From Acidimicrobiia bacterium (GTDB lineage: Bacteria > Actinomycetota > Acidimicrobiia > IMCC26256 > JACDBD01), in assembly GCA_035938395.1 (NCBI GenBank), contig DASZGY010000021.1, forward strand, positions 1,262 through 65,261: a DNA stretch of 64,000 nucleotides. The letters run 5' to 3'. The notes beneath the pieces were generated by a model. It made no database searches and had not been told where the DNA came from. It saw only the letters and a program-made list of their open reading frames with translations. The position numbers were made by a program, and so were the translations under genes. Within the stretch, counting starts at the first letter, position 1. Each line of letters begins with the position of its first letter. Of this stretch, positions 9,252-57,057 are shown one piece after another.

Positions 9252-10313
9252 TCAGGTCCGCATACCGGCCTCGAGGCCGCCGAGAACGGACTGAACGTCG
9301 TCGCGTTCGAGCTTCTTCAGCGCTGAGGCTCGCGCCTGCTGCGTGACGGGGCCGCGGCGGGCCGGGTCCATGGCGTTCATCCCCATCACCTTGAGGTCGT
9401 CGCCGGTGGGTTGGAAGGCGAGGACGGGCACGCCGCGGCGCCGGATACGCGCCGCCTCTTGACCCAGATAGAACCGGCACAGGCGCCGCGCCGGCAGGTC
9501 GAGCGAGGGGCGGAGCCGGTTGCCCGCCACCGACATCGGCGAGCTCACGACGACGAGGTCCAGCTCGTGGTCCGCGGAGCCGGCGGCTTTGCCGACCGGC
9601 GTAGCAGGGGCCGGAGCTTGCGACGGCGACCGGTAGTCAACGAGCAGGTCGGCGTTGGTAGGCGAGTGCGCGCCCCCGTCGACGAACGCGACGCCGCCGA
9701 TCGTCACCGGCTCGAAGAAGCTCGGGATCGCGCACGACGCCGCCACCGCGTCGGCGACCGGCGCGGGTGGCGCACCGGGGCGACCGAACACGACGCGGTT
9801 GCCATCCCGAAGACGAACCGCGGTCAGCCACAGGTTCTGTTCGGGCCAATCGGACCCGAACAGCGGGCGAAACGGGGAGGCGACGAGCTCGGTCGGCACC
9901 GCGCCGGCGGGGAGCGCGCCGGCCAGCATCACGCCGGGCCGGTTCATCCAGAACGGTCGCAGCGCCGCCCGCATGATCAGCGACGGAGACGCCATGCGCG
10001 GGAGGCCACGCCGACGGGTCGGCCCGGTCGGAAAGCGCGCTGGTCCGCCACCCATGCCGGCGCGGGCCGCGAGCTGGCCCCCTTCCGGTGAGACGGGATC
10101 GCCGGTCGAACGTGCCGCGAGATCCCGGGCCGAGAAGCCGGCCCGCAGCAGCGCGCCGACGACCGAGCCTGCCGACGTCCCCACGATCACCTCGGCATCG
10201 CGCGGGTCCCAACCCGTTGCGTCGCACAGAGCGTCGAGCACGCCGGCGTGGAAGGCGTGGCCGATCACGCCGCCGGCGCCCAGGACCAGCCCGATGCGGG
10301 GGGCTCTCGTCAC
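9252..10313 (-). CDS. Patatin-like phospholipase
   Basis: GLVLGAGGVIGHAF (GxGxxG), GTSAG (GxSxG nucleophile) and FVDGGAHS (catalytic Asp). Start chosen at GTG 10313 (VTRAPRIGLV). The track ORF extends to 10583, but that extension is low-complexity. Confidence 0.8.
   Translation of the reverse strand: MTRAPRIGLVLGAGGVIGHAFHAGVLDALCDATGWDPRDAEVIVGTSAGSVVGALLRAGFSARDLAARSTGDPVSPEGGQLAARAGMGGGPARFPTGPTRRRGLPRMASPSLIMRAALRPFWMNRPGVMLAGALPAGAVPTELVASPFRPLFGSDWPEQNLWLTAVRLRDGNRVVFGRPGAPPAPVADAVAASCAIPSFFEPVTIGGVAFVDGGAHSPTNADLLVDYRSPSQAPAPATPVGKAAGSADHELDLVVVSSPMSVAGNRLRPSLDLPARRLCRFYLGQEAARIRRRGVPVLAFQPTGDDLKVMGMNAMDPARRGPVTQQARASALKKLERDDVQSVLGGLEAGMRT
9574..9630 (+). repeat. Copy F of the dispersed hairpin+box element, antisense inside the patatin CDS
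   Basis: gcggaGCCGGCGGCtttGCCGaCCGGCgtagcagggGCCGGAGCTTGCGACGGCGAC. The hairpin GCCGG-CGGC/GCCG-CCGGC and the box match the other six copies. Confidence 0.85.
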
Positions 10314-10416
10314 GAGGCCGGATGGTACCTCCCGATCCCGGCTAACCTCATTGGCCCCTCGAACCACTCGAGTGACTTTCGCAACTTTTCTCTCAAGGCA
10401 GGCCGATCGCAGACCG

Positions 10417-11037
10417 ATGACTCGTCTCGTGCGCCCCTCTCGCCGCCTCGCCCCGTTCGCCCTGGTGGCGGTGCTGGCCCTCGCCGCCGTCGGCTGCTTC
10501 GGCCCGTCGGGCGGCGCCCCGGTCCCGGTGATGGGGCAGTCGGACCTCACCGCCGAGCAGATGGCCGCGTACTTCTGGGCCAATCAGCCGCCCGGGTCGC
10601 CGTGCCTGACCGTGTCGGTGGAGGAATTGACCGCGGACTTCCAGTGGCACGGCAATGCCGAGAACGTCCGCGGCGACATCGCGTTCGCGCAGTCGATCAT
10701 CGAGACCGGGTGGTTTCGCTACGGCGGTTCGGTGCAATGCGAGCAGAACAACTACGGCGGCTTCCTCGGGCAGTCCTTCCCCGACGCGGAGACCGGCGTG
10801 CGGGCCCAGATCCAGCACCTACGCGCGTACGCCGACCCGTCCGCGACGAGTTGCTCGCAGCCGCCGTTGGCGACGCCGTGCGCCGATCCCGTCTTCAGCT
10901 CGGTGAACCCCAAGGGCAAGGCGCCGAACTGGAACGACATGGGGAACGGCAACTGGGCGGAGGCGTCCGACTACGCCGGCAAGGTGCTCACCGTCTACAA
11001 CGACATGCGCGCGTCCGCCGGTCTGCCCGGCGTCTGA
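10417..11037 (+). CDS. Secreted lipoprotein with glucosaminidase-like (cell-wall hydrolase) domain
   Basis: Signal peptide with lipobox LAAVGC. FAQSIIETGWFRYGG...NNYGGF resembles the N-acetylglucosaminidase domain. Only the last 206 codons of track ORF 9655..11037 are taken as real. Confidence 0.55.
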   Translation: MTRLVRPSRRLAPFALVAVLALAAVGCFGPSGGAPVPVMGQSDLTAEQMAAYFWANQPPGSPCLTVSVEELTADFQWHGNAENVRGDIAFAQSIIETGWFRYGGSVQCEQNNYGGFLGQSFPDAETGVRAQIQHLRAYADPSATSCSQPPLATPCADPVFSSVNPKGKAPNWNDMGNGNWAEASDYAGKVLTVYNDMRASAGLPGV

Positions 11038-11047
11038 CGCACCGCTC

Positions 11048-11824
11048 TTAGACCGGCCGGAGCGTCACCCGTACCGGTCGGTGGTCCGAACCGACTTCGT
11101 CCAGCACCGCAGCATCCACCACCTCGACGTCGCGGCGCACGAGCACGTGGTCGATCTGGCTGTGCGGTCGGTGCGCGGGCCATGTCCGCCCTCGGACCGC
11201 CCGGCGCCAACCGGGAAGCAGCGCGCTCACCGCCGGGCCCCACAGGTTGAAGTCGCCGACGATCACGGCGCGATGGTCCGGCGGCGGAAGCCGCCGCCGG
11301 AGATTGCGCAGTTGCATAGGGGGCGCGTACGGCAATCGCGAGCTGAGGTGCACGGCGATGAGGTCGACGTCCTGTCCGCCGACGTCGAGCGCCACGCGCA
11401 ACGCGGAGCGGCGCACCGCCGGATCGCCCGGCACGTCGCCCACCGGGATGATCTCGACGAGCCGCGCCGGCAGGCGGCTCACGACGGCGAGGCCGATCCG
11501 GCCGTTCGCCCGGTGCGGCCGGGCCGAGATGATGTGGGGCCACGGCTCGACGATCCCGCGCCCGAATGACGCCCAGTGCACCGTCGCGCCGCTGTCGGTT
11601 GCCATCAGGTCGACGGCGGCATCGCCGTCGTCGGGCCACCACCCTTCCTGCAGGACGAGCACGTCGGCATCGAACGAGCGCAGGGCCCCGGCCACGTCGT
11701 ACGCCCCGTTGGACGTCGCCTTCTCGGGCGGAGGTGGGGCGGGGTGGCGCAAGCGCGGCGTCGAGATGCGCCGGCTGCTCTGCCCCCCATGGAGGTTCAG
11801 CGTGACGATGGAGAGCTCGCTCAT
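11048..11824 (-). CDS. Endonuclease/exonuclease/phosphatase (EEP) family protein
   Basis: N-terminal IVTLNLHGG and C-terminal GSDHRPVRVTL are typical EEP motifs. Confidence 0.8.
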   Translation of the reverse strand: MSELSIVTLNLHGGQSSRRISTPRLRHPAPPPPEKATSNGAYDVAGALRSFDADVLVLQEGWWPDDGDAAVDLMATDSGATVHWASFGRGIVEPWPHIISARPHRANGRIGLAVVSRLPARLVEIIPVGDVPGDPAVRRSALRVALDVGGQDVDLIAVHLSSRLPYAPPMQLRNLRRRLPPPDHRAVIVGDFNLWGPAVSALLPGWRRAVRGRTWPAHRPHSQIDHVLVRRDVEVVDAAVLDEVGSDHRPVRVTLRPV

Positions 11825-11911
11825 GAATCAACAGCTTGACACTCGATCTGCGCTTTTCGGACCCACCTGCATAGGCTCGAATCCCCTACCGGTTGTGACA
11901 CGGAGGACGGC

Positions 11912-12733: not shown

Positions 12734-14323
12734 CTACCGGGAGATCACGGCGACGAACCGTCGCCGTCCGTCTGCCGCCAACGCCGCCCGCGCCGCGTTG
12801 GCGCCGCACGCCCCGTGCACGCCGCCACCGGGATGCGCGGACGCCGACGCGAGGTACAGCCCGCGGATAGGAGTCTCGGCCCGCCCCAGCCCGACGATCG
12901 GTCGGAAGATCAGCTGCTGGTGCAGCTGTGCCGTTCCTCCGTTGACGGCCCCGCCGACGAGGTTCGCGTCGGCTGCTTCGAGCATCGGCGGCGTGAGGAC
13001 GTTGCGGCCGACGACCCGGGCGGTGAAACCAGGCGCGCGCGCCTCGAGCTCGCGCTCGACGCGGGCGACGAACCGCTCGGTCTCGCGCTCGTCCCACTTG
13101 CCCGAGAGGTCGCCGCCGGCGTCCCCGAGCGGCCGGTGCGGCACGTGCGTGTAGCCCCAGACGCTCTCGGTTCCCGGTGGCGATCGGGTCGGATCGCTCG
13201 TCGTCATCTGCCCGACGAGCACGAACGGCTTCGCCGGGATGCGCCCGGTCGCGAGCTGTGCCGCCACCTCGCTGAGGTGGTCGAGCGAATCGCCGAGGTG
13301 CACCGTCCCGGCACGGCGAGCGGGCTCGGCGGACCACGGCACCGGGCCGTCGAGCGCCCAGTCGATCTTCACCGTCGCGTGGTCGTACGCGAACCCACGC
13401 ATGCCCTCGAGCACGCGGGCCGGGAGGTGCTCCGGACGCACGAGCGAGCCGTAGAGCGCGGGCGCGCCCACGTCGGCGAGCACGGCGCGCGCCACGCCGA
13501 TCTCGTCTCCGTGCTCGGTGCGCACTGCCACCGCGCGCCGGCCTCGCACCTCGATCGAGGTGACGGCGGTCGAGCAGACGACGCGCCCTCCGCGCGCCTC
13601 GAGCCGGCGGACGAGTGCTTCGGTGAGGCGGCCGGCGCCACCCTCGGGGACGGGGAAGCCGTGCTCCTGGCCCAGCGACGCCAGCACCCAGCCGAAGAAC
13701 CCGCCGAGTGTCTGCTCGGGCCCGAGGTCGGTGTGCAGCGTGTTGCCGGCGAGGAGCAACGCGCCCCCCGAGCCGGCGAACGTCTCCTCGGCCATGGTGC
13801 GGACGGGAAGCAACGCGAACCGCGCAAAGCTGGCCCAGTCGCGCGGCCCGACCGCGGCGGCGAGGCGACCGCCGGCGACGACGGGCGGGAACGGCGTCAG
13901 CAGCGCCTCGACGAGGTGCCGCCCGACCCGCTGCCACCGTGCGTACAGCGCGCGCCAGGCGGCGCCGTCGCCGGGTGCGTAGTTGTCGAGCGATGCCGCT
14001 GTCTCGTCGACGTCGGTCGAGAGGACTGCGCATCCGCCGTCGGGTGTCGGGTTCGCGAGCGCGATCGGCGCGTGGCGCCACCGGAGCCCGAACTCCTCGA
14101 GCCCGAGGCCTCGGATGACGGGCGACGCCGCCGCCAAGGGGTAGAACGCGCTGAACCGGTCGTGCACGAAGCCCGGCTCGGTGAGCTCGCCGCTGCGTAC
14201 GGCGCCGCCCGGGTCGGGCTGGGCCTCGAGCACGAGCACCTCCCAGCCGTGGTCGGCGAGCAGGTTGGCGCCGACGAGGCCGTTCGGCCCGCTCCCGATG
14301 ACGATGGCGTCAGGAGTGGTCAC
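12734..14323 (-). CDS. FAD-dependent oxidoreductase, phytoene-desaturase/amine-oxidase family
   Basis: DAIVIGSGPNGLVGANLLADHGWEVLVLE dinucleotide-binding motif. Start at GTG 14323, overlapping the stop of the upstream small gene (GTGA). Confidence 0.8.
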   Translation of the reverse strand: MTTPDAIVIGSGPNGLVGANLLADHGWEVLVLEAQPDPGGAVRSGELTEPGFVHDRFSAFYPLAAASPVIRGLGLEEFGLRWRHAPIALANPTPDGGCAVLSTDVDETAASLDNYAPGDGAAWRALYARWQRVGRHLVEALLTPFPPVVAGGRLAAAVGPRDWASFARFALLPVRTMAEETFAGSGGALLLAGNTLHTDLGPEQTLGGFFGWVLASLGQEHGFPVPEGGAGRLTEALVRRLEARGGRVVCSTAVTSIEVRGRRAVAVRTEHGDEIGVARAVLADVGAPALYGSLVRPEHLPARVLEGMRGFAYDHATVKIDWALDGPVPWSAEPARRAGTVHLGDSLDHLSEVAAQLATGRIPAKPFVLVGQMTTSDPTRSPPGTESVWGYTHVPHRPLGDAGGDLSGKWDERETERFVARVERELEARAPGFTARVVGRNVLTPPMLEAADANLVGGAVNGGTAQLHQQLIFRPIVGLGRAETPIRGLYLASASAHPGGGVHGACGANAARAALAADGRRRFVAVISR

Positions 14324-14673
14324 CGCGCCTCCCGTCCGGCCTGGCGGCGGCGCGCGTCCTCGAGACGCTCGAGTACCTCGGCGTCGACCGCCGCCGCCTC
14401 GGGGCCGTAGCCGAGCACCGCAGTGCCTTTCGCGCTGCAGTGCGGGCATGCCAGGCCGACCACCGCGAGCATGTCGTCAGGGTCGGACGCTCCCTCGAGC
14501 CGCCGCAGCTGCCGGAACACCGTCTCGTCGGCGGGGGAGAGCCGGTGGCAGGTGATGCACTCGACCTGACCGCCCTCACGCGGCATGAACTGGCCGGTGA
14601 AGCCGAGCGACTCGAGCTCGCCGAGTACGTCGAGGATCGTCTCGTCCTCGCCTTCGCCGGGCACGTACTCCAT
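14320..14673 (-). CDS. Small acidic protein with two CxxC pairs (putative zinc ribbon), function unknown
   Basis: MEYVPGEGEDE...ECITCH...LACPHCSAKG. ATG 14673 is preceded by GGAAGGG with a 5-nt spacer. Its stop overlaps the start of the downstream oxidoreductase. Confidence 0.55.
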   Translation of the reverse strand: MEYVPGEGEDETILDVLGELESLGFTGQFMPREGGQVECITCHRLSPADETVFRQLRRLEGASDPDDMLAVVGLACPHCSAKGTAVLGYGPEAAAVDAEVLERLEDARRRQAGREAR

Positions 14674-14686
14674 CAAAGCCCTTCCT

Positions 14687-14742
14687 GTCGCCGTCGCGAG
14701 CTCCGGCTTCGCGGCGACGGTCGGCGAAGCCGCCGCCGCGCG
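14687..14742 (-). repeat. Copy 1 of the hairpin+box element (5' leader of the Cys4 small-protein gene)
   Basis: Minus-strand read: cgcGCGGCGGCGGCttcGCCGaCCGTCGCCGCgaaGCCGGAGCTCGCGACGGCGAC, then aGGAAGGGctttgATG. TACGTT (-10-like) lies at 14748..14743, directly upstream. Confidence 0.9.
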
Positions 14743-14933
14743 AACGTACCCGCGTCGTGCGGAACCACGCTCCGCCACCGTTTGGGCCTCTGACCTGGTA
14801 CAATGAGGAAGGCGAGCACGAAGCCACCACAACGGCACGGCTCGCGGGTCACCTCATCGCTTCCGTTCGCGGCTCGCGCACGGGTTCCGAGGGGACCCAC
14901 CGCCGCAGAATGCGGCGGGCGCTACCAATACCA

Positions 14934-27482: not shown

Positions 27483-27500
27483 GAACCGCCGTATCGCGCG

Positions 27501-27553
27501 ACGACGGCGGCTTGGCCGCCGTCGTGGCAATAGCGGAGCTTGCGACGGCGACA
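27501..27553 (+). repeat. Copy D of the hairpin+box element (5' leader of hyuA)
   Basis: ACGACGGCGGC-ttg-GCCGCCGTCGT (11-bp stem), then ggcaatagcGGAGCTTGCGACGGCGACA. GTG 27570 lies 17 nt after the box. Confidence 0.9.
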
Positions 27554-27569
27554 ATGACGGGGCGACGCT

Positions 27570-29357
27570 GTGCTCGTGCGGGTCGGCGTCGACACGGGCG
27601 GGACGTTCACGGATCTCGTCCGGGATGACGGGCGGGTGGTCAAAGTGCCGTCCACGCCCGACGACCCGACCCATGCGCTGCAGGCGGCGCTCGACGAGGC
27701 CGACACAGGAGCGCCGGTCGAGTTGCTCGCCCACGGCACCACGGTCGCGACCAACGCTTTGCTCGAGGGACGAGGGGGACGGGTCGCGCTCGTCGCGACG
27801 TACGGGTTCGCCGACGTCATCGAGATCGCGCGCCAGGTCCGGCCCTCGTTGTACGACCCGACGGCCGATCGACCCCGCCCGCTGGTGGAGCGCGGTCTGC
27901 GCATCGACGTCGGGGGGCGTCTCGACGGGCATGGTCGCGAGCTCGAGCCCGTCGACCCGGCGAGCGTCCCGGCCGTGCCGAACGGCGTGGACGCCGTCGC
28001 CGTGTGCCTGCTCCACTCCGACCTCGACGCTGCCCACGAGCACCTGGTCGCCAAGGAGCTCGCGGCGAGGGGGCTGGACGTGACGTGCTCGCACGAGGTC
28101 TCACCCGAGTTCCGCGAGTACGAGCGCACCGTCACGACTGTGGCCAACGCAGTCCTTCGGCCGGTCTGTCGTGACTACCTGCTCGGGCTCGACGGGTTGG
28201 CGCGCGAAGCGCTGGTGATGACGTCCGAAGGTGGCCTCGTGCCGGCGTCCGACGCGGCCGAGCGACCGTCCGCATTGCTGCTCTCCGGGCCGGCCGGGGG
28301 CGTACGCGCGGCGGCGGCGGTCGCGCTCGCCTGCGGCTTCCCCGACGCCGTCTCGTTCGACATGGGCGGAACGAGCACCGACGTCTGCCTCGTGCGCGGC
28401 GGAGTCCCCGAGCCGGCGCCGTCGCGGATGGTCGCCGGCTACCCGATCCGGCTGCCCGCCCTCGACATCCACACGATCGGCGCCGGTGGCGGCTCCATCG
28501 CGCGAATCGACGCCGGCGGCGCCCTCGTGGTCGGCCCCGAGAGCGCCGGCGCGGTCCCCGGTCCCGCGTGCTACGGGCGCGGCGGCGAGAAGCCGACGGT
28601 GACCGACGCCGACCTGGTGCTCGCCCGCATCCCCGACGAAGCCGCGTTCCCCGGTCTCGGTCGACTCGAGGTCGACGCGGCTCAGCGTGCGCTCGAACGC
28701 GAAGGCGTCCCCGCCGACGGCGTCGTCGCAGTCGTCGACGCAGCCATGGAACGGGCCGTTCGGGTCGTCACGGTCGAGCGCGGCGACGACGCGCGCGAGC
28801 TGGCACTGGTCGCGTTCGGCGGAGCAGGTCCACTACACGCGTGCGCCGTGGCCAGCGCGCTCGACATGCGGGCGGTGATCGTCCCGCCGCGCGCGGGCGT
28901 GCTCTCGGCCGTCGGGCTCGTGTGCTCGCCGCGCCAGCGCGAGCTCGTCCGGTCGTGGCCCGAGCCGCTCGAGCACGCGGGTCTCGCCGCCGCCCTCGAT
29001 CGCGTCGCCGCCGAGGCCGTCGCCCTCGTCGGCGGCCACGATGCCGAGGTCGAACGCCTGGTGGATTGCCGCTACGCGGGGCAGAGCCACGAGCTCACGG
29101 TGGCGGGGCCGGACGAGTTCCCCGCCGAGCACGAACGCCGCAACGGCTTCGCCCGGCCCGGTGCGCCGGTCGAGGTCGTGGCGCTGCGCGTCCGGGCCCG
29201 CCGTCCCGCGCCGCTGTCGCCCGCCGACCTCCCGCCGGTCGCGCGGTCCGAAGTGCGCGGCCCCGCGGTCGTGGCCGAGTCCGACTGCACCGTGTGGGTG
29301 CCCGACGGCTGGCGGGCCGAGCCCGGTCCGCTCGGCGCCTGGGTGCTGACGCGATGA
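27570..29357 (+). CDS. hyuA: Hydantoinase/oxoprolinase A subunit
   Basis: VGVDTGGTFTDLV N-terminus and the hydantoinase_A core. 595 aa. Confidence 0.85.
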   Translation: MLVRVGVDTGGTFTDLVRDDGRVVKVPSTPDDPTHALQAALDEADTGAPVELLAHGTTVATNALLEGRGGRVALVATYGFADVIEIARQVRPSLYDPTADRPRPLVERGLRIDVGGRLDGHGRELEPVDPASVPAVPNGVDAVAVCLLHSDLDAAHEHLVAKELAARGLDVTCSHEVSPEFREYERTVTTVANAVLRPVCRDYLLGLDGLAREALVMTSEGGLVPASDAAERPSALLLSGPAGGVRAAAAVALACGFPDAVSFDMGGTSTDVCLVRGGVPEPAPSRMVAGYPIRLPALDIHTIGAGGGSIARIDAGGALVVGPESAGAVPGPACYGRGGEKPTVTDADLVLARIPDEAAFPGLGRLEVDAAQRALEREGVPADGVVAVVDAAMERAVRVVTVERGDDARELALVAFGGAGPLHACAVASALDMRAVIVPPRAGVLSAVGLVCSPRQRELVRSWPEPLEHAGLAAALDRVAAEAVALVGGHDAEVERLVDCRYAGQSHELTVAGPDEFPAEHERRNGFARPGAPVEVVALRVRARRPAPLSPADLPPVARSEVRGPAVVAESDCTVWVPDGWRAEPGPLGAWVLTR

Positions 29358-41423: not shown

Positions 41424-41480
41424 TCGGCAACACAACAGGTTCTGGTCCTGTCGTTGGGGGTTCGAGTCCTCCCCCCCGAG
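41409..41480 (+). tRNA. tRNA-Gln (anticodon CTG)
   Basis: Cloverleaf folded by hand: acceptor TCGGGGG/CCCCCGA, D stem GTGT/ACAC, anticodon stem ACAGG/CCTGT with loop TTCTGGT, and T arm GGGGG-TTCGAGT-CCTCC. Confidence 0.9.
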
Positions 41481-41498: not shown

Positions 41499-41571
41499 GG
41501 CCCCGTCGTCTAGTGGCCTAGGACGCCGCCCTCTCAAGGCGGAAGCGGCGGTTCGAATCCGCTCGGGGCTG
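41499..41571 (+). tRNA. tRNA-Glu (anticodon CTC)
   Basis: Acceptor GGCCCCG/CGGGGCT, anticodon stem CCGCC/GGCGG with loop CTCTCAA, and T arm GGCGG-TTCGAAT-CCGCT. Confidence 0.9.
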
Positions 41572-42436: not shown

Positions 42437-42889
42437 GTGGTGACCGTGCCTCCGGCGAAGAGACGTACAGCACGGAAATCAGCTAGGAAGACAGCACGGA
42501 AGCCGGCGAAGCGCCGCACAACGACGCGTCGCCGGACGACACGCAAGTCGACGGCACGGAAGCCGGCGAAGCGGCGGCGTAAGGCAGCTGCGGCCAAGCC
42601 GGTCAAGCGCCGTCGTCGCAAGGCCTCGGCGAAGAAGGCGCCCGCAAAGCGTCGTCGTCGTAAGGCCACGGCGAAGAAGGCGCCCGCAAAGCGTCGTCGT
42701 CGCAAGGCTGCGGCGAAGAAGGCGCCCGCCAAGCGTCGTCGTCGCAAGGCGGCGGGCGCGGCGAAGCCGGTCAAGCGGCGTCGTCGTAAGGCTGCCGGTA
42801 CTGCGAAGCCCGTCAAGCGGCGTCGTCGCAAGGCTGCGGCGAGCAAGACGGCAAAGCGGCGTCCGGCGAAGAGGCGGGCCCGCCGGTAA
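42437..42889 (+). CDS. Lys/Arg/Ala-rich histone-H1-like repeat protein (equivalent to the C-terminal tail of actinobacterial HupB/HupS)
   Basis: AKKAPAKRRRRKA repeats. Same reading frame as hup, separated from it by the single TAG plus 18 sense codons. Start uncertain (GTG 42437/42440/42446). Confidence 0.6.
   Translation: MVTVPPAKRRTARKSARKTARKPAKRRTTTRRRTTRKSTARKPAKRRRKAAAAKPVKRRRRKASAKKAPAKRRRRKATAKKAPAKRRRRKAAAKKAPAKRRRRKAAGAAKPVKRRRRKAAGTAKPVKRRRRKAAASKTAKRRPAKRRARR
42593..42846 (+). repeat. Tandem 42-45-bp coding repeats (about 6 units) within the basic-tail ORF
   Basis: Units such as gcgaagaaggcgcccgcaaagcgtcgtcgtcgtaaggccacg recur with few changes, encoding A(K)KAPAKRRRRKAx. Confidence 0.85.
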
Positions 42890-44259: not shown

Positions 44260-44318
44260 TCACGACTCCGCGACGCACGCCGAAGGTCGAAACGCATGCG
44301 AATGCGTATGCTACCGGG

Positions 44319-44365
44319 CGGCGACGTCGGCTCTGCCGACGGTCGCCGGAGCTTGCGACGGCGAC
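44319..44365 (+). repeat. Copy E of the hairpin+box element (5' leader of plsC-gpsA), short variant
   Basis: cGGCGACgTCGGCtctGCCGAcgGTCGCCGGAGCTTGCGACGGCGAC, then AGGGAGAGactTTG. TATGCT (-10-like) at 44307-44312. Confidence 0.9.
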
Positions 44366-44376
44366 AGGGAGAGACT

Positions 44377-45117
44377 TTGGAACCGGTGTATTCCGCTGCT
44401 CGCACCGTCTTGTTGCCACCGCTGCACTACGGGATGAAATGGACGATCGAAGGCGCGCACCTCGTTCCGCCGCGCGGGCCCGTGATCCTCGCCAGCAACC
44501 ACACTTCGTACCTCGACCCGCTCGCACTCGCTTACCTCGCCGACCGCCGTCACCGCCGGGTGCGCTTCCTGACCAAGGCCGAGCTGTTCGACAAACAGCC
44601 GCTCGGCTTCCTGTTGCACCAGGTCCGTCAGATCCCCGTCGTGCGCAACTCGCCGACGGCGGCCGGATCCCTCGAGTTGGCGGTCGAGGCGCTCGGGCGG
44701 GGCGAGTGCGTCGCGATCTTCCCCGAGGGGACGATCTCGCTCGACCTCGAGCCGATGGCGGGGAAGTCCGGCACGGCCCGGCTCGCCGCGCAGTCCGGGG
44801 TGCCCGTGACGCCCGTCGGACTCTGGGGCGCGCACCGCACGTTGTTCAAGGGCCGGAAGCCGAACTGGCAGTGGGGCGTGGCGGAGACCGCAGTGGTCGG
44901 AGCGCCCGTGCGGGTCCACGCCGACGACGACATCCCCGACGCGACCGACAGGATCATGGGTGCGATCGCCGGCTGCGTGGCGCGGGCACGCGAGATCTAC
45001 CCGCAGCGACCGGGGCCGGGAGACGACGGGTGGTGGCAGCGCGGTCCCGAGACGGCTCGGGTTCGCCCCGCGAATCGGACCGACGACCGCGCCGACGACG
45101 TCGAGACGGCCACGTGA
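44377..45117 (+). CDS. plsC: 1-acyl-sn-glycerol-3-phosphate acyltransferase
   Basis: NHTSYLDP (HX4D) and IFPEGT motifs. Start at TTG 44377 (5 nt after GGAG) or GTG 44386. Confidence 0.8.
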   Translation: MEPVYSAARTVLLPPLHYGMKWTIEGAHLVPPRGPVILASNHTSYLDPLALAYLADRRHRRVRFLTKAELFDKQPLGFLLHQVRQIPVVRNSPTAAGSLELAVEALGRGECVAIFPEGTISLDLEPMAGKSGTARLAAQSGVPVTPVGLWGAHRTLFKGRKPNWQWGVAETAVVGAPVRVHADDDIPDATDRIMGAIAGCVARAREIYPQRPGPGDDGWWQRGPETARVRPANRTDDRADDVETAT

Positions 45118-47444: not shown

Positions 47445-50193
47445 CGGCGTCGTCCACGCGGAGCGACGCGATCTCCCACGGGCGGAGCTCGACCGCGCCC
47501 TCGAACCGCTCGACGGGCCGGCCGACCAGGTCGACCGTCCAGCCCGTCGCGGGCGCACCGTCGCGTTCGACGGCGGCCGTCGACGGATCGGGGGACGGGT
47601 TGAACACGCGCGCCAGCAACCCGCCCGGCTCGCGCAGCACCGCCGACACCCGGGCGCCGTCCACCCGCAAGCGCGCCCCGGTGGGCTCGCGGCGCGCGCC
47701 CGCCACGCCACCCGCTCTGACGCGCTCGAGCGGGACGAGCACCTCGTCGGCGGCGTCGTAGAGGTTTGCGTCGCGCCAGTCGCCGCGGTGAGGCAGCAGC
47801 GCGTAGTCGAAGGTGCGACGGCCCGGCACCTGCGGGCCCTCGAGCGGATACGGGTACCCGGCCGGGCTCGCCCGCATCGAGAGCTGCAAGCGGGAGAGGT
47901 ACCCGGTCGCGCGCAGCAGCGTGAGCGCCATCTCGTCGCTTTGCTTCCCGTCGTCCGTGACGAGCTCGTATTCCAGCAGTCCGTCGTGGACGATCGCGAG
48001 GCCGGCGCTCCCGTCCGAGGCGTCGACGAAGCGGCGCGACACGAAGGTCGGGAGGCCGAACTCGTTGGGGCCTCCTTCCGCGGTCAGGCCGCGCTCGACG
48101 ACGGCGAACGCGCACTCCGCGTGCGACTTCGCCACCGGCGCGGGGAGCGGGAAGTGCGCCCGTAGCCGGTGGTCACGGCAGGGATTGTCCAACTCGGTGT
48201 GGACGCGGAGGAACCTTTCGCCGGTGCGCAGCTCCAGGGTCGTGTGCACCCCGACAGGGGTCGTGTCGCCCGCACGCTGTTCGCAGGAACGCTCGTCGCC
48301 GACAGCGTGCGTCGGCCACTGGTACGTCGCATCGATGCGCACGCGGGCGCGCACAGGACCGGACTCGAGCTCGGTGACCTCGACGCGCTCGGGCCGGTCG
48401 ATGACGAGATCCTCGGCGGGCGGGGAGTAGTTGTAGGTGTCGCCGCCGTCGCCGCCGTCCACCAGTCGTCCGAGGCCGCGCACCGTCAGCCCATCGGCGG
48501 TCGTGATGGCGTACGTGCCGTCGCCGTCGACCTCGACGTGGAGATGCTCGTTGTCGAGCGACGACGGCCCCGACGTGACCGCGCTGGTCGGTCCCGCCCC
48601 GGGGGCGACCGTGTAGCTCCGCCAGCCGAAGCCGGGCACGTCGTCGGCGGCGAAGATCGCCTCCTGTACCGGCGCCGTGATGACCCGGAAGCGGATCGTC
48701 TTGCCCTCGTCGCCGAGCTGCACGAGCTCGTCCCGCAGCTCGGTCAGGTCGATGTGCGGCTCGCCGGGGTGGGCACCCCGGAAGGTGAGCTCGAGCGCGC
48801 CGTCGTCGGCCTCGTCCATGTCGTAGTGGCCGATGCGCTCACCGGCGAACTCGGGCCCGTTCATCATCTCGATCACCCACCGCACTTTCTGGCCCGAGAC
48901 GATCGTCGAGAACCCCTCGCCCGTGAGCAGGCCCAGCACCTGGGTCGGTCGCGCCTCGCCGTCAGGCGTCACGAAGTGGAACGGCCCCTCCCCGGGGACG
49001 CTCACCGACAGCACGCCGCCGCGCTGCGCTTGCGTCGGGTTCGCGACCAGCGTCGACCCGGCAGGTGTGTCCACCTCGGTGGCGAGCTGCCGCATGGCCT
49101 CCCGCGCGAGGACGTCGCCGATCTGGCGTGCCTCGTGGTAGCGCACCATCACCTGGTCGACGACCTCGTCGTCGCTGCACGCGCACGAGGAGTCGTGGGC
49201 GCTGTTCTCCACGAGCTTCTGCCACGCGATCCCGAGGAGCGCGTCGGGATACCGCTCCGCCGGTACGAACATCGCCGACAGCGGCTCCGCCCGGCGCTCG
49301 AGTGCCCGCTCCGCGACCGCGCACGCCTGGTGCACGTCGACGCGGTTCGACGCCACTCCCATGAGCACGTTGGCGCGCGCCCCCGATCGCAGCTCGCCCC
49401 GGACCGTCGTCAGTCCCTCGGTGGGCTGCTCGGGGAGGTATTCGGCGAGCGAGGTGACGACGAACCGGTAGTCGTCCTGGATCTCATTCGCCTCCGCGAC
49501 GACGCGCCCGAGCCACGGCTGCGGCATCTGGTGGTCGGTGCCGTTCATCAGCAGCATCGATCCACCGGGGAGCCGGGCCGGGCCGAGCTCGAGCTCGTAG
49601 CTCCGCGCCCGCGCGACGAGCTGCTTGGCATCGTCGGGAAGGTCGCGACCATTCGAGTACGAGCCGTACAGGTACTCGGCGCGCACGGTTGAACCGTCGG
49701 GCGCCTCCCACGCGAACGCGGTCTGCGTGACCGTCGACGGGACGCCGCGCCACACCACCGCATGCTCGAAACCTGCCAGCCGGAGGATCTGCGGCATCTG
49801 CGAGATGTGGCCGAACATGTCGGGCAGGTATCCGACCGGCATCGCGCCGCCGAGCTCGATCGCGCGCCGCAGGCCGAGCTGGAGGTCGCGGACGATCGTT
49901 TCGCCCGAGACCATGAACTCGTCCATGAGGACCATCCACGGCCCCACCGACAGGCGGCCGGTGGCGGCCAGCCGCCGCAGCGTCTCCGCCGCCTCGGGCC
50001 GGACCTCGAGGTAGTCGTCGACGACCACCGTCTGGCCGTCGAGCAGGAAGCGGGCGTAGCTCAGGTCGTGCTCGAGGAGCGGGAGGAGCGCGTCGAGGAG
50101 CCGGACCAGCCGGGCCCGGAACACCTGGAACGGCGCGTACCACTCCCGGTCCCAGTGCGTGTGCGGGACGATCCCGACCTTCGTCGGCGGCAT
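47437..50193 (-). CDS. Alpha-mannosidase, glycoside hydrolase family 38
   Basis: VGIVPHTHWDREWY N-terminal motif. 918 aa from ATG 50193. Confidence 0.85.
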   Translation of the reverse strand: MPPTKVGIVPHTHWDREWYAPFQVFRARLVRLLDALLPLLEHDLSYARFLLDGQTVVVDDYLEVRPEAAETLRRLAATGRLSVGPWMVLMDEFMVSGETIVRDLQLGLRRAIELGGAMPVGYLPDMFGHISQMPQILRLAGFEHAVVWRGVPSTVTQTAFAWEAPDGSTVRAEYLYGSYSNGRDLPDDAKQLVARARSYELELGPARLPGGSMLLMNGTDHQMPQPWLGRVVAEANEIQDDYRFVVTSLAEYLPEQPTEGLTTVRGELRSGARANVLMGVASNRVDVHQACAVAERALERRAEPLSAMFVPAERYPDALLGIAWQKLVENSAHDSSCACSDDEVVDQVMVRYHEARQIGDVLAREAMRQLATEVDTPAGSTLVANPTQAQRGGVLSVSVPGEGPFHFVTPDGEARPTQVLGLLTGEGFSTIVSGQKVRWVIEMMNGPEFAGERIGHYDMDEADDGALELTFRGAHPGEPHIDLTELRDELVQLGDEGKTIRFRVITAPVQEAIFAADDVPGFGWRSYTVAPGAGPTSAVTSGPSSLDNEHLHVEVDGDGTYAITTADGLTVRGLGRLVDGGDGGDTYNYSPPAEDLVIDRPERVEVTELESGPVRARVRIDATYQWPTHAVGDERSCEQRAGDTTPVGVHTTLELRTGERFLRVHTELDNPCRDHRLRAHFPLPAPVAKSHAECAFAVVERGLTAEGGPNEFGLPTFVSRRFVDASDGSAGLAIVHDGLLEYELVTDDGKQSDEMALTLLRATGYLSRLQLSMRASPAGYPYPLEGPQVPGRRTFDYALLPHRGDWRDANLYDAADEVLVPLERVRAGGVAGARREPTGARLRVDGARVSAVLREPGGLLARVFNPSPDPSTAAVERDGAPATGWTVDLVGRPVERFEGAVELRPWEIASLRVDDAVS

Positions 50194-50253
50194 CGGGCCA
50201 GGATACGGGCCGCCACCGAGGTCGGTCCTGGGCTCGCCGTAAGCTCGATCGCC

Positions 50254-50682
50254 ATGCGGGTGGTGCTCGGGTCGGACGAGAAGACCGGGCTGACCGACGC
50301 CGTCCGGGACGACCTGGAGCAGCGCGGCCACGACGTCGTGCTGGTGGGTCCGCCGGGCGGCGAGCCCATCGAATGGGCCGAGGTCGGCGAGCGCGTCGGC
50401 GAGCTCGTCGCCAAGGGCGACGTCGACACGGGGGTCCTGTTCTGCTGGACCGGCACGGGCGCGTCGATCGCCGCGAACAAGGTGCCGGGCGTGCGCGCCG
50501 CGTTGTGCACCGACGCCGCCACCGCCGCCGGCGCCCGGAAATGGAACGACGCCAACGTGCTCGTCATGGGGCTTCGGCTCACGAGCCCCGTAGTGGCCCG
50601 CGAGCTCCTCGACGCGTGGTTCGCAACCGAGCCGGACCCCGGCGAGGCCGACAACATCGCCCGGCTGGAGAGCCGTCGGTAA
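50254..50682 (+). CDS. rpiB: Ribose-5-phosphate isomerase B
   Basis: RpiB/LacAB family pattern LFCWTGTGASIAANKVPGVRAAL. 142 aa. Confidence 0.85.
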   Translation: MRVVLGSDEKTGLTDAVRDDLEQRGHDVVLVGPPGGEPIEWAEVGERVGELVAKGDVDTGVLFCWTGTGASIAANKVPGVRAALCTDAATAAGARKWNDANVLVMGLRLTSPVVARELLDAWFATEPDPGEADNIARLESRR

Positions 50683-50690
50683 GCTCCCGC

Positions 50691-50746
50691 CGCGGCGACG
50701 GCGGCTTTGCCGCCCGTCGCCGCAAAGCCGGAGCTTGCGACGGCGA
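50691..50746 (+). repeat. Copy A of the hairpin+box element (5' leader of the GYD gene)
   Basis: cGCGGCGACGGCGGCtttGCCGcCCGTCGCCGCaaaGCCGGAGCTTGCGACGGCGA, then gAAGGGaaaccGTG. TAAGCT (-10-like, includes the rpiB stop) at 50680-50685. Confidence 0.9.
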
Positions 50747-50757
50747 GAAGGGAAACC

Positions 50758-51051
50758 GTGCCGACCTACGCGATGCTCACGACACTGGGGCCCGATGGGT
50801 GGGCGACCGTCCGCGAGAACCCCGAGCGCATCCGGGAGGTCACGCGCGAGGTCGAGGGGATGGGCCTGACGGTCATCGCCCAGTACGCCCTCATGGGCCA
50901 GTACGACTTCCTCAACGTGATCGAGGCGCCCGACGAGGCGACGATGGCCCGGGCCGCGATCATGCTGGCGGCGCGGGGCACGATGCGGACCACCACGCTC
51001 CAGGCGATCTCCGTCGAAGAGCTGATCCAGAGCTTGAAGATCGATAGTTAG
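50758..51051 (+). CDS. GYD domain protein
   Basis: (M)PTYAMLTTLGPDGWATV...GQYDFLNVIEAPDE is the typical GYD family pattern. Start at GTG 50758 rather than the track start 50707, which reads through the repeat element. Confidence 0.8.
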   Translation: MPTYAMLTTLGPDGWATVRENPERIREVTREVEGMGLTVIAQYALMGQYDFLNVIEAPDEATMARAAIMLAARGTMRTTTLQAISVEELIQSLKIDS

Positions 51052-51061
51052 CGGATCGCGA

Positions 51062-51265: not shown

Positions 51266-51347
51266 CGTCGGCGAGGGTAACAGGCACCTGACCAGGAGCG
51301 GAAGAGACGTGCACTTCGGCGTCGCAGGGGCTTGGTATGTTCCGGCG

Positions 51348-52067: not shown

Positions 52068-52081
52068 GCAGGGGGGCGAAC

Positions 52082-52651: not shown

Positions 52652-52669
52652 TCTCGTAACCTCACGCCC

Positions 52670-52724
52670 GCGGGAATGGCGGTTTTGCCGACCGTTCCCG
52701 CGAAGCCGGAGCCTGCGACGGCGC
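52670..52724 (+). repeat. Copy B of the hairpin+box element (5' leader of the Nfu-like gene)
   Basis: GCGGGAATGGCGGTtttGCCGaCCGTTCCCGCgaaGCCGGAGCCTGCGACGGCGC, then AAGGAGagagATG. TAACCT at 52657-52662 and TAATCT at 52649-52654 lie upstream. Confidence 0.9.
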
Positions 52725-52734
52725 AAGGAGAGAG

Positions 52735-53100
52735 ATGGGCCAGCCGATCACCGTCACCGCCCGACCCGGCGCGTCGCCGTCGATCCGGTTCTTCGAGCTC
52801 AACCGGTCGCTCACGGGCATGGAGATCGAGCGGTACCACGCCGTCGACGACACCGAGGGCGACCGGCCGCCCGACGTGCTGGCCCGGCGGCTGTTCGACC
52901 TCGGCGCCACCCAGGTGACGATCTATTCGAGCGCGGTCACTGTGCAGGCGCCGCCCGAGCGTTGGCCCGAGCTCGAGCCCAAGGTCACCGAGACGATGGA
53001 GCACCTCTTCGGCTACTACGGCGACGACGCCGGCTGGTCACCCGACGCGCTCGAGGCCCTCGGCATCGAGGTCAAGCCCCCGCCCGAACCGCAGAAGTAG
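52735..53100 (+). CDS. Small protein resembling the Nfu/NifU N-terminal scaffold domain
   Basis: 121 aa. PSIRFFELNRSL...LFDLGATQVTIYSSAVTVQ is reminiscent of the Nfu_N fold. Weak assignment. Confidence 0.5.
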   Translation: MGQPITVTARPGASPSIRFFELNRSLTGMEIERYHAVDDTEGDRPPDVLARRLFDLGATQVTIYSSAVTVQAPPERWPELEPKVTETMEHLFGYYGDDAGWSPDALEALGIEVKPPPEPQK

Positions 53101-53146
53101 GCGCTCGCGCTTCCTGCTCTTCCTGGGTCTGCGGTCGACCCCGCGC

Positions 53147-53836
53147 TTGCCGATCGAACACACGTTCGCTTATGGTCGGCATGTGGCCCTGGCCGCACTT
53201 CCCCGGCGGGACGAGCGATCCCGCGAGCACCTTGACAACACAGCCCGGCACGCCCGGCCTGTGGTGCTGGCCGGCGAGCGGGTCCTGGCCGTGCCCGGCC
53301 CGCTCGGCGCGCTGCTCCCCGGCGGCGCCGTCCAGCGGGGGACGGTGGTGGCGGTCGACGGCGACCCCGGAGCGGGAGCCACGTCGGTCGCTTTCCAGCT
53401 GGCGGCGGCGGCCACGGCCGCCGGCGAATGGGCCGCCGCGATCGAGCTCGACGCCAGCCTGGGCGGGCTGGCGGCGGGAGAGGCCGGGGTCGAGCTCGAA
53501 CGGTTCGCCGTCGTCCGGCGGGTGCCCCCCGCCCGCTGGGCTGCGGTGGTTGCCGCACTGCTCGACGGGGTCAGCGTCGTGCTCGCCGAGGTGCCGGCAT
53601 ACGCACGGGTGGGCGATGCGAGGCGGCTGCTCGCCCGTGCCCGCGAGCGCGGCGCGGTGCTGGTGGCGATGGGACCGTGGCCGGCCGAGGCCGCGCTCCG
53701 CCTGCGGGCCGGAGGCTCGGTCTGGCGCGGCCTGGATGCCGGCGCGGGCGCGTTCGCCGGACGCGACCAGCGCGTGCACGTCGACGGCCGCGGCGCCGCC
53801 GCCCGTGATCACGTCGCGCTCGTCGAAGCCGGCTGA
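53147..53836 (+). CDS. imuA: ImuA'-like SOS mutasome accessory protein (RecA-fold remnant)
   Basis: Sits directly upstream of imuB behind a LexA box. VVAVDGDPGAGATSVAFQLAAAAT is a degenerate Walker-A-like segment. The true start is probably GTG 53183, 6 nt after TATGGT. Confidence 0.65.
   Translation: MPIEHTFAYGRHVALAALPRRDERSREHLDNTARHARPVVLAGERVLAVPGPLGALLPGGAVQRGTVVAVDGDPGAGATSVAFQLAAAATAAGEWAAAIELDASLGGLAAGEAGVELERFAVVRRVPPARWAAVVAALLDGVSVVLAEVPAYARVGDARRLLARARERGAVLVAMGPWPAEAALRLRAGGSVWRGLDAGAGAFAGRDQRVHVDGRGAAARDHVALVEAG
53154..53169 (+). promoter_or_regulatory. LexA (SOS) box upstream of imuA'
   Basis: TCGAAC-ACAC-GTTCGC, one mismatch to the actinobacterial consensus TCGAAC-N4-GTTCGA. 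TATGGT (-10-like) follows at 53171-53176. Confidence 0.75.
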
Positions 53837-53845
53837 CGGCACGGG

Positions 53846-55869: not shown

Positions 55870-55915
55870 GACGAGGCAAGTCTCGCATCCGGTCCCGACG
55901 CGCGAAGCTCGCGCC

Positions 55916-56365: not shown

Positions 56366-56405
56366 AGGCGGCGATGAGTTTCGCCGCGGGGGAGGTCCAG
56401 AGACC

Positions 56406-56945
56406 ATGACCGTGAGGGAGCCACGCTCGGAGCGGAACCTCGACGGCTACGACGCCCCGCCCATCGCGTGGGCGAGAGTGCGTGAACGTCTCGACCAGGG
56501 TGTGACCCAACCCCCGGGGACCGGTGGACCGGGCCGGCACACGTACTGGCTGGCGACGACGAACCCGGACGGCAGTCCGCACGTCATGCCGCTCGGGGTC
56601 TTCTGGGTCGACGGTGGCTTCTTCTTCAACGCCGGTCCCGGCACGCGCAAGGCGAAGAACCTGGCCGCCAACCCGCGCTGCGTCATCTCGGTGGCGACGG
56701 ACCAGTTCGACCTCGTCGTGGAGGGCGAAGCCGTGAAGGTCACCGACGACGCCGAGCTCCGGCGCATCGCCGACGTGTTCGCGGCCGGGGGGTGGGAACC
56801 GACCGTGCGCGACGGCGCCCTGTATGCCGAGTTCAGCGCGCCCAGCGCCGGCCCACCGCCGTGGCACGTCTACGAGGTCACGCCGAAGACGGTGTACGCC
56901 CTGGGGACGGCCGATCCGTACGGCGCCACCCGCTTCCGCTTCTGA
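56406..56945 (+). CDS. Pyridoxamine 5'-phosphate oxidase family protein
   Basis: YWLATTNPDGSPHVMPLGVFWVDGGFFFNAGPGTRKAKNLAANPRCVIS is the split-barrel pattern. Confidence 0.6.
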   Translation: MTVREPRSERNLDGYDAPPIAWARVRERLDQGVTQPPGTGGPGRHTYWLATTNPDGSPHVMPLGVFWVDGGFFFNAGPGTRKAKNLAANPRCVISVATDQFDLVVEGEAVKVTDDAELRRIADVFAAGGWEPTVRDGALYAEFSAPSAGPPPWHVYEVTPKTVYALGTADPYGATRFRF

Positions 56946-56968
56946 GCCCGGCGGTCCCGCTGGACTGA

Positions 56969-56984
56969 TCGAACGTACGTTCGA
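56969..56984 (+). promoter_or_regulatory. LexA (SOS) box upstream of dnaE2
   Basis: TCGAAC-GTAC-GTTCGA, a perfect 16-bp palindrome identical to the actinobacterial consensus. It is immediately followed by TACGGT (-10-like, 56985-56990). Confidence 0.85.
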
Positions 56985-57000
56985 TACGGTGGCAGGCCCG

Positions 57001-57057
57001 GGTGGCGATGGCGGCTTTGCTGACCGTCGCCACAAAGCCGGAGCTTGCGACGGCGAC
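57001..57057 (+). repeat. Copy C of the hairpin+box element (5' leader of dnaE2)
   Basis: gGTGGCGATGGCGGCtttGCTGaCCGTCGCCACaaaGCCGGAGCTTGCGACGGCGAC, then aatcagagcGGAGtaGGGGccgcccGTG. Confidence 0.9.

Follow-up and report, generated by a model that had tools for sequence, protein, structure and literature searches.

The 64,000-nucleotide (nt) stretch of an Acidimicrobiia bacterium analyzed here (assembly GCA_035938395.1, contig DASZGY010000021.1, positions 1,262 to 65,261 of the forward strand; hereafter, the window) carries seven copies of a short structured repeat, and comparison with related genomes suggests that the repeat is mobile and non-autonomous, a small element that provides genes with a ready-made 5' leader, a reading to which we assign a probability of roughly 0.6. 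The element is about 57 nt long and consists of hairpin 1, a linker of 3 to 4 nt, and hairpin 2; a tail of 10 to 14 nt with a Shine-Dalgarno (SD) sequence follows. In the mechanism that we propose, the element would insert between the -10 hexamer and the start codon of a gene, which would keep its own promoter and start codon. Hairpin 1 would become a stable 5'-terminal mRNA hairpin that shields the transcript against 5'-end-dependent decay (RNase E, RNase J, and RppH), the two closed hairpins would stop the leader from pairing with the SD, and the tail would supply that SD, shifting translation from leaderless to SD dependent. Copies between cistrons would act alike after processing, and mobility would leave tandem arrays and copies at the 3' ends of genes as by-products.

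The evidence that carries this reading comes from sites that are filled in one species and empty in another. Searching a collection of species-representative genomes with an exact 20-mer of hairpin 2 returned at least 117 eight-kilobase tiles, cited below by their labels (L numbers); all sequences compared are metagenome-assembled genomes (MAGs). Among the matches listed, 113 of the 117 tiles carry the element, and the hairpins are absent from 4, which are in unrelated taxa. The element is found in at least 19 species-level MAG assemblies, named Acidimicrobiia, Actinomycetota, or "uncultured Actinomycetes" (soil), and a profile search of the tiles and the window (905 kb) gave 165 hits, 144 of them strong and including the 3' end of the element. 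The tile species are closely related, with orthologous proteins mostly 83 to 95% identical. In 70 cross-species comparisons with both flanks aligned, 39 sites were empty and 30 were filled, and the extra length was bimodal, with no decayed intermediates. In one syntenic block (L007/L046/L077/L026/L064), each of four adjacent genes has the element in only one or two of the five species.

In at least nine independent genes, the empty orthologue reads TANNNT, 6 to 9 nt, and then ATG or GTG, without an SD, an arrangement that we take to be the signature of a predicted leaderless gene. Examples are L070 (TACCTTgactgcGTG; filled in L113), L114 (TACTCTcgccggcATG; filled in L101 and L043), L046 (TACTCTgaccgccgATG; filled in L007, against which L077, L026, and L064 are likewise listed), and L018 (TACGGTgcggctcATG; filled in L108). 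The filled orthologues retain the hexamer and the position of the start codon, and between the two stand hairpin 1, hairpin 2, and a 10- to 14-nt tail whose SD lies 5 to 9 nt 5' of the start codon. What was inserted is therefore both hairpins together with the SD tail, a unit that is predicted from these alignments to turn a leaderless gene into an SD-led gene. In the comparisons, copies landed most often in the short interval that separates the -10 hexamer from the start codon of a putatively leaderless gene. Other copies landed inside an existing 5' untranslated region (UTR) (L011/L022/L051 versus L020), between cistrons (L039 and the window copy at 27535 versus L036), or within the 5' end of a translationally coupled gene, which thereby gained a new ribosome-binding site (L046 versus L007/L077/L026). 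Once, a copy lies in frame in an SRAP (YedK-like) gene (L096, about 253 to 340, versus L018, about 5229), where the copy and its tail extend 9 codons to 29, adding 20 codons with no stop (frame read by hand).

Start codon usage is consistent with such a switch. The leaderless signature (TANNNT, 5 to 9 nt, ATG/GTG) was found at 87 of 702 open reading frames (ORFs) in the tiles and the window (about 12%), against 0.17% per internal start codon, and leaderless genes are, by this measure, predicted to be common in the lineage. Genes with the signature start with ATG in 57 cases, GTG in 41, and TTG in 1; for element-led genes, the counts are 41, 36, and 18. TTG thus makes up 19% of the starts of element-led genes versus 1% of those with the leaderless signature (Fisher P = 1.3e-5), and three filled/empty pairs have ATG or GTG when empty and TTG when filled. 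TTG is a poor start for leaderless initiation and is functional with an SD; such a shift would be expected were element-led genes translated via the SD that the element supplies.

The placement of the copies points in the same direction. A same-strand start codon of a coding-type ORF follows 103 of the 144 strong copies, and together with 7 further obvious cases that the thresholds missed, about 76% of the 144 point at a gene. The distance to the start codon is 10 to 14 nt in 66 of the 103, and in 90 an SD-like motif lies between the element and the start codon; hairpin 2 ends 3 to 8 nt 5' of the SD. Relative to the adjacent gene start, about 110 copies run in the same direction and at most about 6 in the opposite one, and very few copies lie upstream of promoters. 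The sequence-only reading of the window, made from its letters and an ORF list, had held that a random REP-like repeat would not give such a bias, and the covariance-model search and the tabulation of orientation and distance in relatives bear it out. Upstream of the element, TANNNT ends 0 to 12 nt (mode, 4 to 5 nt) before hairpin 1 in 58 of 100 gene-facing copies; the background rate at random positions is 0.6%, and in a separate class, made up of copies at gene 3' ends, it is 0 of 18. In that class (18 of the 144 copies, about 24 with borderline cases, or about 12 to 16%), the reverse-strand stop codon of a convergent gene follows 3 to 4 nt on. The sequence 5' of the -10 hexamers shows no conserved -35 element and only a pair of G-rich positions immediately ahead of the hexamer; missing -35 conservation is usual for actinobacterial promoters. 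Given the observed spacing and the 6 to 7 nt that usually separate the hexamer from the start site, transcription should begin at, or a few nucleotides from, the base of hairpin 1, which fits the 5'-terminal position that the sequence-only reading had proposed.

Some of these positions could also be read as those of a terminator or attenuator. Hairpin 1 is stable and GC rich, a co-directional stop codon lies at most 80 nt upstream, often 1 to 10 nt, in 36 of 100 gene-facing copies, and the minority class lies between convergent genes; if hairpin 1 acted mainly on the upstream gene, its place before the next gene would be incidental. We consider this very improbable, as hairpin 1 is followed in all aligned copies by AAAGCC, AGAGCC, or AGGAGCC and never by a T run, most copies stand just 3' of a -10 hexamer or in divergent regions without an upstream gene (47 of 100 gene-facing copies are in divergent regions), and the empty sites show the whole unit inserted at the promoter-to-start junction. 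The upstream stop codons within 12 nt are themselves unusual: 15 are TAG or TAA and 4 are TGA, against a background of 63% TGA (P = 4e-4), and such stops therefore seem to double as -10 hexamers.

Both hairpins are supported by covariation. In hairpin 1, about 10 lower pairs vary with compensation, the apex CGGC-UUU-GCCG is nearly invariant, and there is a bulged A. In an alignment of 69 copies (A2), hairpin 1 shows 42 compensatory cells versus 10.0 in column shuffles; it is 92 to 94% paired, with compensatory changes in 8 of 14 pairs, and in slid registers pairing falls to 20 to 60%. In the fixed register, G.U pairs number 71 versus 28 A.C, which marks the folding strand as sense with respect to the downstream gene. 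The 3' part of the element had been described in the sequence-only reading as a linear box after a short linker, a candidate binding motif; that the hairpin, linker, and box recur together stands, but the box is not linear. Together with the preceding GCC, which had been counted as linker, it forms hairpin 2 (GCCG / tandem G.A-A.G / G[CUUG]C / CGGC), and the window copy at 44348 has no linker at all. Hairpin 2 is 98% paired on an alignment fitted to hairpin 1 only, and it has a compensated pair in each direction: CG to GC in four copies (GCGG...CCGC in L091, L034, L092, and L106) and GC to CG in three (GCCC...GGGC in L054, L082, and L019). Jointly, the hairpins show 54 compensatory cells versus 11.6 in shuffles (alignment A4), and RNAalifold finds both unaided. 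The consensus fold consists of the two hairpins (-37.9 kcal/mol; z = -5.6) and leaves the SD unsequestered.

Several other functions of these sequences were considered and rejected. If the loop of hairpin 1 (GGCUUUGC) paired with the linker (GCAAAGCC), the AGGA-linker variants should be compensated, and if the 3' arm of hairpin 1 (GUCGCCG) paired with the box (CGGCGAC), the stem variants should be; by inspection, neither set is. A promoter within the box (TTGCGA as a -35, or GGAGC as a -35 of the extracytoplasmic function type) would put the -10 on the start codon, and the downstream sequence is unconserved. A leader peptide or small ORF from the TTG in hairpin 2 is inconsistent across copies in frame and stop. 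Complementarity of hairpin 2 to 16S rRNA, sought by eye against conserved segments and without a formal test, gave nothing convincing.

Copies also occur in composite and tandem form. The composites (L091 4279-4398, L034 3955-4074, L106 5273-5390, L014 1767-1886, L104 1641-1757, and L092 6964-7058) are laid out as hairpin 1a, then a whole second unit, and finally hairpin 2; the second unit has a hairpin 1b of the GCAACGGCAG type, a hairpin 2 with GCGG/CCGC, and a tail of 14 nt. They appear from this layout to be insertions exactly between the hairpins of a resident copy; the L092 copy resembles a recombinant of such a composite. In one divergent intergenic region, the copies of L024 (3155-3216, minus strand) and L030 (1204-1265, minus strand) have different positions and opposite orientations and face different genes; they are independent insertions. 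Direct tandem copies split by a repeated 9- to 10-nt tail, or single copies after a degenerate box end and tail, are seen in L036 (3949-4067), L072 (3675-3802), L075 (about 3969-4032), L090, and L020, and such tandem copies and remnants account for most apparent "target duplications." A conserved noncoding stretch gacccgagccgagcgaagcgaggcgagcaggggctcgg between convergent genes (L031 480-600, L017 about 80-170, and L055 about 3000-3080) is interrupted by the element and a 9-nt SD-like tail in L041 (4636-4691), L061, and L016; the stretch has no Rfam match. A candidate autonomous parent, with a gene between hairpin 1 and hairpin 2, was rejected: orphan pairs were 47 to 74 nt apart (nested) or belonged to separate copies, and no gene was enclosed. 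Copies in viral contigs were likewise rejected, as 49 matches of a 16-mer in IMG/VR included none with the hairpins and are attributed to chance.

Much of this would suit a purely selfish REP- or PATE-like repeat, in which the hairpins are end structures for a single-strand DNA transposase (HUH/Y1, RAYT, or IS200/IS605 type), the SD tail merely keeps insertions non-lethal, and there is no host RNA function. Clean presence or absence between close species, nesting exactly between hairpin 1 and hairpin 2, tandem arrays, a small number of flanking direct repeats, and the one in-frame copy in a coding region all fit, as do the lack of terminal inverted repeats and of a regular target duplication, which is the habit of IS200/IS605. 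Strand-specific hairpins with G.T tolerance suit single-stranded DNA equally well, and one consensus over at least 19 species would fit coevolution with a conserved enzyme. Against these points, there is no conserved tetra- or pentanucleotide target at the left end and no GTAG-type head, inverted pairs almost never occur, and the copies are overwhelmingly co-oriented with gene starts, with very few upstream of promoters, a place where a copy should do no harm in either direction. In the window copy at 44348, moreover, hairpin 1 matches its L083 orthologue at 21 of 33 positions and hairpin 2 at 20 of 20; decay of the one with the other intact is unexpected for a dead selfish copy. We regard the purely selfish explanation as rather unlikely, though it deserves some weight.

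The conservation of hairpin 2 bears on another alternative, that the element is the cis-regulatory RNA of a very large post-transcriptional regulon in which a lineage-specific protein, small RNA, or small ligand binds hairpin 2 (and the hairpin 1 apex) beside the SD and thereby adjusts the translation or decay of every element-led mRNA in concert. Sequence conservation extends over hairpin 2 and the apex of hairpin 1, the lower stem of which is conserved in pairing only, and hairpin 2 lies just a few nucleotides from the SD. Hairpin 2 is also found alone beside the SD in L014 (3098-3117), L114 (482-501), L035, L064, and L074, directly 3' of a -10 hexamer in the first two; the L021 and L104 orthologues of the L014 copy have the full element, and hairpin 1 has therefore been lost there with hairpin 2 kept, a persistence that a binding role would explain. 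Tandem hairpins with G[CUU(U)G]C tips recall the layout of the guanidine-II riboswitch, with no sequence match. The downstream genes are functionally unrelated, however: 94 of them gave 120 Pfam families with no common pathway, and families recur because orthologues are included (groES, prs, and plsC). The occupied genes differ between sister species, which is hard to reconcile with a selected regulon, no Rfam family matches, no candidate binding partner was identified, and the SD is free in the consensus fold. A regulon of this kind is accordingly improbable. The sequence-only reading had noted the absence of a shared pathway and had weighed a post-transcriptional regulon against a portable leader or translation-initiation cassette spread by a repeat-type mechanism; the diversity of genes and the variable occupancy speak against the former, and the leaderless empty sites, filled by an insert that brings hairpins and an SD, favor the latter.

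Within the portable-leader reading, the orientation bias and the scarcity of copies upstream of promoters leave two alternatives: insertion may be targeted to the promoter-to-start junction, or copies may survive only where they land there. A bolder, host-beneficial version would have insertion directed to transcription start sites (for example, to the open-complex bubble), hairpin 2 docking a lineage-specific RNA-binding factor, and hopping that both switches genes, one after another, from leaderless to SD-dependent translation and enrolls them in a common post-transcriptional control. We put this version forward as speculation, and as rather unlikely.

A number of points weigh against the portable-leader reading as a whole. 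Gene starts were called with crude ORF and GC-frame rules of our own, transcription is predicted to start at hairpin 1 from the spacing of the -10 hexamer only, and in some copies, for example, 14688 (minus strand), the predicted start falls a few nucleotides inside the stem. The element has no terminal inverted repeats; its ends (GCGGCGACGG... and ...GCGACGGCGAC(A/C)) share a direct repeat instead. There is no regular target duplication; flanking 9-mers agree at 8 or all 9 positions around 1 of 83 gene-facing and 3 of 14 3'-end copies. Nor is there a conserved target motif, the empty sites sharing only a -10 hexamer at a variable 4 to 9 nt and a GC-rich context. No transposase was seen in the 8-kb tiles around the matches, nor was a RAYT or TnpA identified there, the whole MAGs not having been searched. 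Clean empty sites could in principle be precise losses, as the polarity of gain is given by parsimony only. The sense-strand G.U excess and the covariation would also be expected if a transposase reads the hairpins as single-stranded DNA. The near-invariance of hairpin 2 exceeds the need of a simple insulator and hints at a partner, although its 97.5% identity between orthologues is inflated because the loci were chosen by an exact 20-mer in hairpin 2. Stabilization and insulation, finally, are suggested by analogy with 5'-terminal hairpins elsewhere (ompA type).

If the bolder, host-beneficial version is true, these genomes hold a natural, ongoing, genome-wide switch of translation-initiation mode. 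Leaderless and SD-led initiation coexist in Actinobacteria, and the route from one mode to the other is an open evolutionary question; here, one mobile module appears to switch the mode in a single step, repeatedly and recently, with both alleles visible in sister species. The element would also be a natural, compact part made of a promoter-proximal hairpin, an insulator hairpin, and a ribosome-binding site, near to synthetic-biology designs and from a high-GC lineage without genetic tools. Should the mobilizing activity target transcription start sites, this would be a novel form of target selection among bacterial mobile elements. In annotation work, the element would fix the true start codon of many MAG genes (about three-quarters of the 144 copies).

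Among known systems, the nearest are small non-autonomous repeats that are co-transcribed with neighboring genes, such as Correia elements (CREE/NEMIS) in Neisseria, the BOX, RUP, and SPRITE repeats, and ERIC. The element shares with the Correia and BOX/RUP/SPRITE repeats that they are short dispersed hairpin repeats with tens to hundreds of copies whose occupancy varies between related genomes, that they often lie just upstream of genes and join the mRNA, and that they can alter expression. The BOX, RUP, and SPRITE repeats of Streptococcus pneumoniae are described in PMC3049150. From the Correia and BOX/RUP/SPRITE repeats the element differs in lacking terminal inverted repeats and any regular target duplication, whether TA or another, and in its much smaller size (about 57 nt plus 12 nt). 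It also carries an SD tail, keeps a strongly single orientation to the gene, and inserts 3' of the -10 hexamer and 5' of the start codon in putatively leaderless genes, where it would form the entire 5' UTR.

The covarying imperfect palindromes and strand-specific hairpins recall REP/BIME/REPIN (RAYT) repeats and the PATEs of IS200/IS605, and REP and PATE repeats likewise have no inverted terminal repeats, no regular target duplication, and one consensus over related species; a minority of element copies also lie, like REP and PATE copies, at gene 3' ends between convergent genes. In contrast to REP/REPIN, the 5' foot of the element is (C)GCGG without a GTAG tetranucleotide before it, multiple copies are direct tandem or nested rather than inverted pairs, and about three-quarters are upstream of and co-oriented with a gene rather than downstream. 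A second, sequence-invariant hairpin and an SD tail are foreign to REP and PATE alike, and the conserved tetra- or pentanucleotide 5' of the insertion that marks IS200/IS605 PATEs is lacking. The PATE traits that the element does have (two hairpins, no inverted repeats, a G.U:A.C ratio of 71:28, and nested insertion) fit an RNA element equally well.

The mycobacterial interspersed repetitive units (MIRUs), reportedly described by Supply and colleagues in 1997, are intercistronic repeats of 40 to 100 bp from an actinobacterial lineage that are co-oriented with flanking genes, can be tandem, and are thought to provide translation signals, a profile that the element recalls. MIRUs, however, act through small overlapping ORFs that serve translational coupling in operons, whereas the element is a structured noncoding leader, mostly right after a promoter. 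The orientation is shared; as to position, only 36 of 100 copies have a co-directional gene end within 80 nt upstream, and 47 of 100 lie in divergent regions. No sequence similarity to MIRUs was noted, without a formal sequence comparison. The 5'-terminal stabilizers of Escherichia coli ompA and Bacillus subtilis ermC and aprE, as well as synthetic insulators, have a stable hairpin at or near the mRNA 5' end followed by an unpaired ribosome-binding site, as the element does. Those leaders belong to single genes or are engineered, whereas the element is copied naturally before many unrelated genes and would stabilize their transcripts by analogy. The in-frame L096 copy resembles Rickettsia palindromic elements, as a single case in an element that is overwhelmingly extragenic. 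Each known repeat family compared has testable defining features that the element fails, namely, inverted repeats, target duplication, a GTAG head, inverted pairing, 3'-end preference, and overlapping small ORFs. The box sequence was not found in a literature text search, and literature term searches yielded no precedent for a repeat that forms the whole 5' UTR, with its own SD, at the start of leaderless genes.

Within the window, copies were located with the 17-mer GGAGCTTGCGACGGCGA, allowing at most three mismatches and using 100 shuffles as the null. There were eight matches versus 1.13 expected, and none of the 100 shuffles reached eight. Seven of the eight (9613, 14688 on the minus strand, 27535, 44348, 50730, 52708, and 57040) are element copies, each with a GC-rich hairpin 5' of the box; the eighth (56154, minus strand, three mismatches) lacks a hairpin and was rejected as a chance match. 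A covariance model (R1) built from 69 element copies scored the seven at 48.3 to 84 bits, and the next-best match in the window, at 29.3 bits, is the 50.7-kb hairpin read in antisense. The seven copies proposed in the sequence-only reading are thus real and recur beyond chance. It had also recognized no named RNA family, and Rfam agrees: at gathering thresholds, nothing in the whole window matched at the element, and a relaxed scan of 50640-50790 gave only generic hairpin and microRNA models (best, 24.5 bits versus a gathering score of 79). Six copies do face a predicted gene at short gaps, which we count as 11, 18, 12, 11, 10, and 26 nt from the last A of ..GGCGA to the start codon; the earlier values of 13, 17, 11, 11, 10, and 25 nt used a slightly different box end. 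As to the genes behind them, Pfam upheld hydantoinase A, the GYD-domain protein, and the DnaE-type polymerase, as well as the PlsC-like acyltransferase after copy 4 (PF01553 matched three members of a set comprising 44377-45114 and its orthologues); the Nfu-like assignment after copy 6 stands less firmly, as the Nfu_N match is weak and under the Pfam cutoff. The small protein after copy 2 (14320-14676) has no Pfam match. The features are as follows, with scores from model R1.

9574..9629, plus strand: copy 1, minority class, 72.8 bits; orthologous copy in L085
9574-9605 (approximately), plus strand: hairpin 1 of copy 1, apex 9584-9594, with hairpin 2 at 9610-9627
9637-9639: TCA, 7 nt after copy 1, the reverse-strand stop codon of predicted ORF 9637-10227 (no Pfam match)
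14688..14742, minus strand: copy 2, 69.1 bits
14732-14722, minus strand: hairpin 1 apex of copy 2, with only 7 lower-stem pairs intact; hairpin 2 at 14707-14690, a CUCG loop variant
14743..14748, minus strand: TACGTT, -10-like hexamer directly upstream of copy 2
14674..14687, minus strand: copy 2 tail caGGAAGGGct (SD-like) and TTG start (14676-14674) of a 118-amino-acid ORF, with an alternative ATG 3 nt downstream of the TTG
27498..27551, plus strand: copy 3, between two cistrons, 66.1 bits; orthologous to the L039 copy, with the L036 site empty
27508-27518, plus strand: hairpin 1 apex of copy 3, without the bulged A; hairpin 2 at 27532-27549, with an imperfect 5' stem (AGCG)
27552..27572, plus strand: copy 3 tail (18 nt) and GTG start (27570) of the hydantoinase A gene
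44319..44364, plus strand: copy 4, the lowest score, 48.3 bits; orthologues in L083 (simple copy) and L091 (composite copy); hairpin 1 abuts GGAGC, its 3' arm incomplete and the linker gone
44307..44312, plus strand: TATGCT, -10-like hexamer 6 nt upstream of copy 4
44365..44379, plus strand: copy 4 tail cAGGGAGAGact (SD) and TTG start (44377) of the PlsC-like acyltransferase gene
50692..50746, plus strand: copy 5, nearest to the consensus, 84 bits; hairpin 1 at 50692-50723 and hairpin 2 at 50727-50744
50680..50685, plus strand: TAAGCT, -10-like hexamer 6 nt upstream of copy 5, overlapping the TAA stop of ORF 49762-50682
50747..50760, plus strand: copy 5 tail GAAGGGaaacc (SD) and GTG start (50758) of the GYD-domain gene
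52670..52724, plus strand: copy 6, 70.9 bits; hairpin 1 at 52670-52701, with compensated lower-stem changes GGGAAUGG/CCGUUCCC, and hairpin 2 at 52705-52722, a CCUG loop variant
52657..52662, plus strand: TAACCT, -10-like hexamer 7 nt upstream of copy 6
52725..52737, plus strand: copy 6 tail AAGGAGagag (SD) and ATG start (52735) of the Nfu_N-like gene
57002..57056, plus strand: copy 7, 79.1 bits; hairpin 1 at 57002-57033, with its second pair changed from G-C to U-A with compensation, and hairpin 2 at 57037-57054
56985..56990, plus strand: TACGGT, -10-like hexamer 11 nt upstream of copy 7
57057..57085, plus strand: copy 7 tail of 26 nt with gcGGAGtaGGGG and GTG start (57083) of the DnaE-type polymerase gene

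No -10 hexamer lies upstream of copy 1, and its arrangement before a reverse-strand stop codon is that of the minority class found in other genomes too.

Three further features of the window were noted. Weak R1 matches at 42.6 to 42.9 kb were rejected as element copies because they lie in a coding tandem repeat; they arise because CGTCGTCGCAAGGC resembles the reverse complement of the box. The repeat itself (42596-42842, plus-strand reading) has a 42-nt unit in about six copies and encodes the basic, K/R/A-rich repeat KRRRRKATAKKAPA, and the ORF that contains it resembles the histone-like tails of actinobacterial nucleoid proteins. The sole Rfam matches in the window are two adjacent tRNA genes (41409-41480 and 41499-41571). 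An exact LexA box of the actinobacterial type, TCGAACGTACGTTCGA, at 56969-56984 adjoins the TACGGT hexamer of copy 7, and the element would therefore sit in the leader of an SOS-regulated transcript; a second LexA box, with one mismatch, lies 3' of the Nfu-like gene at 53154-53169.

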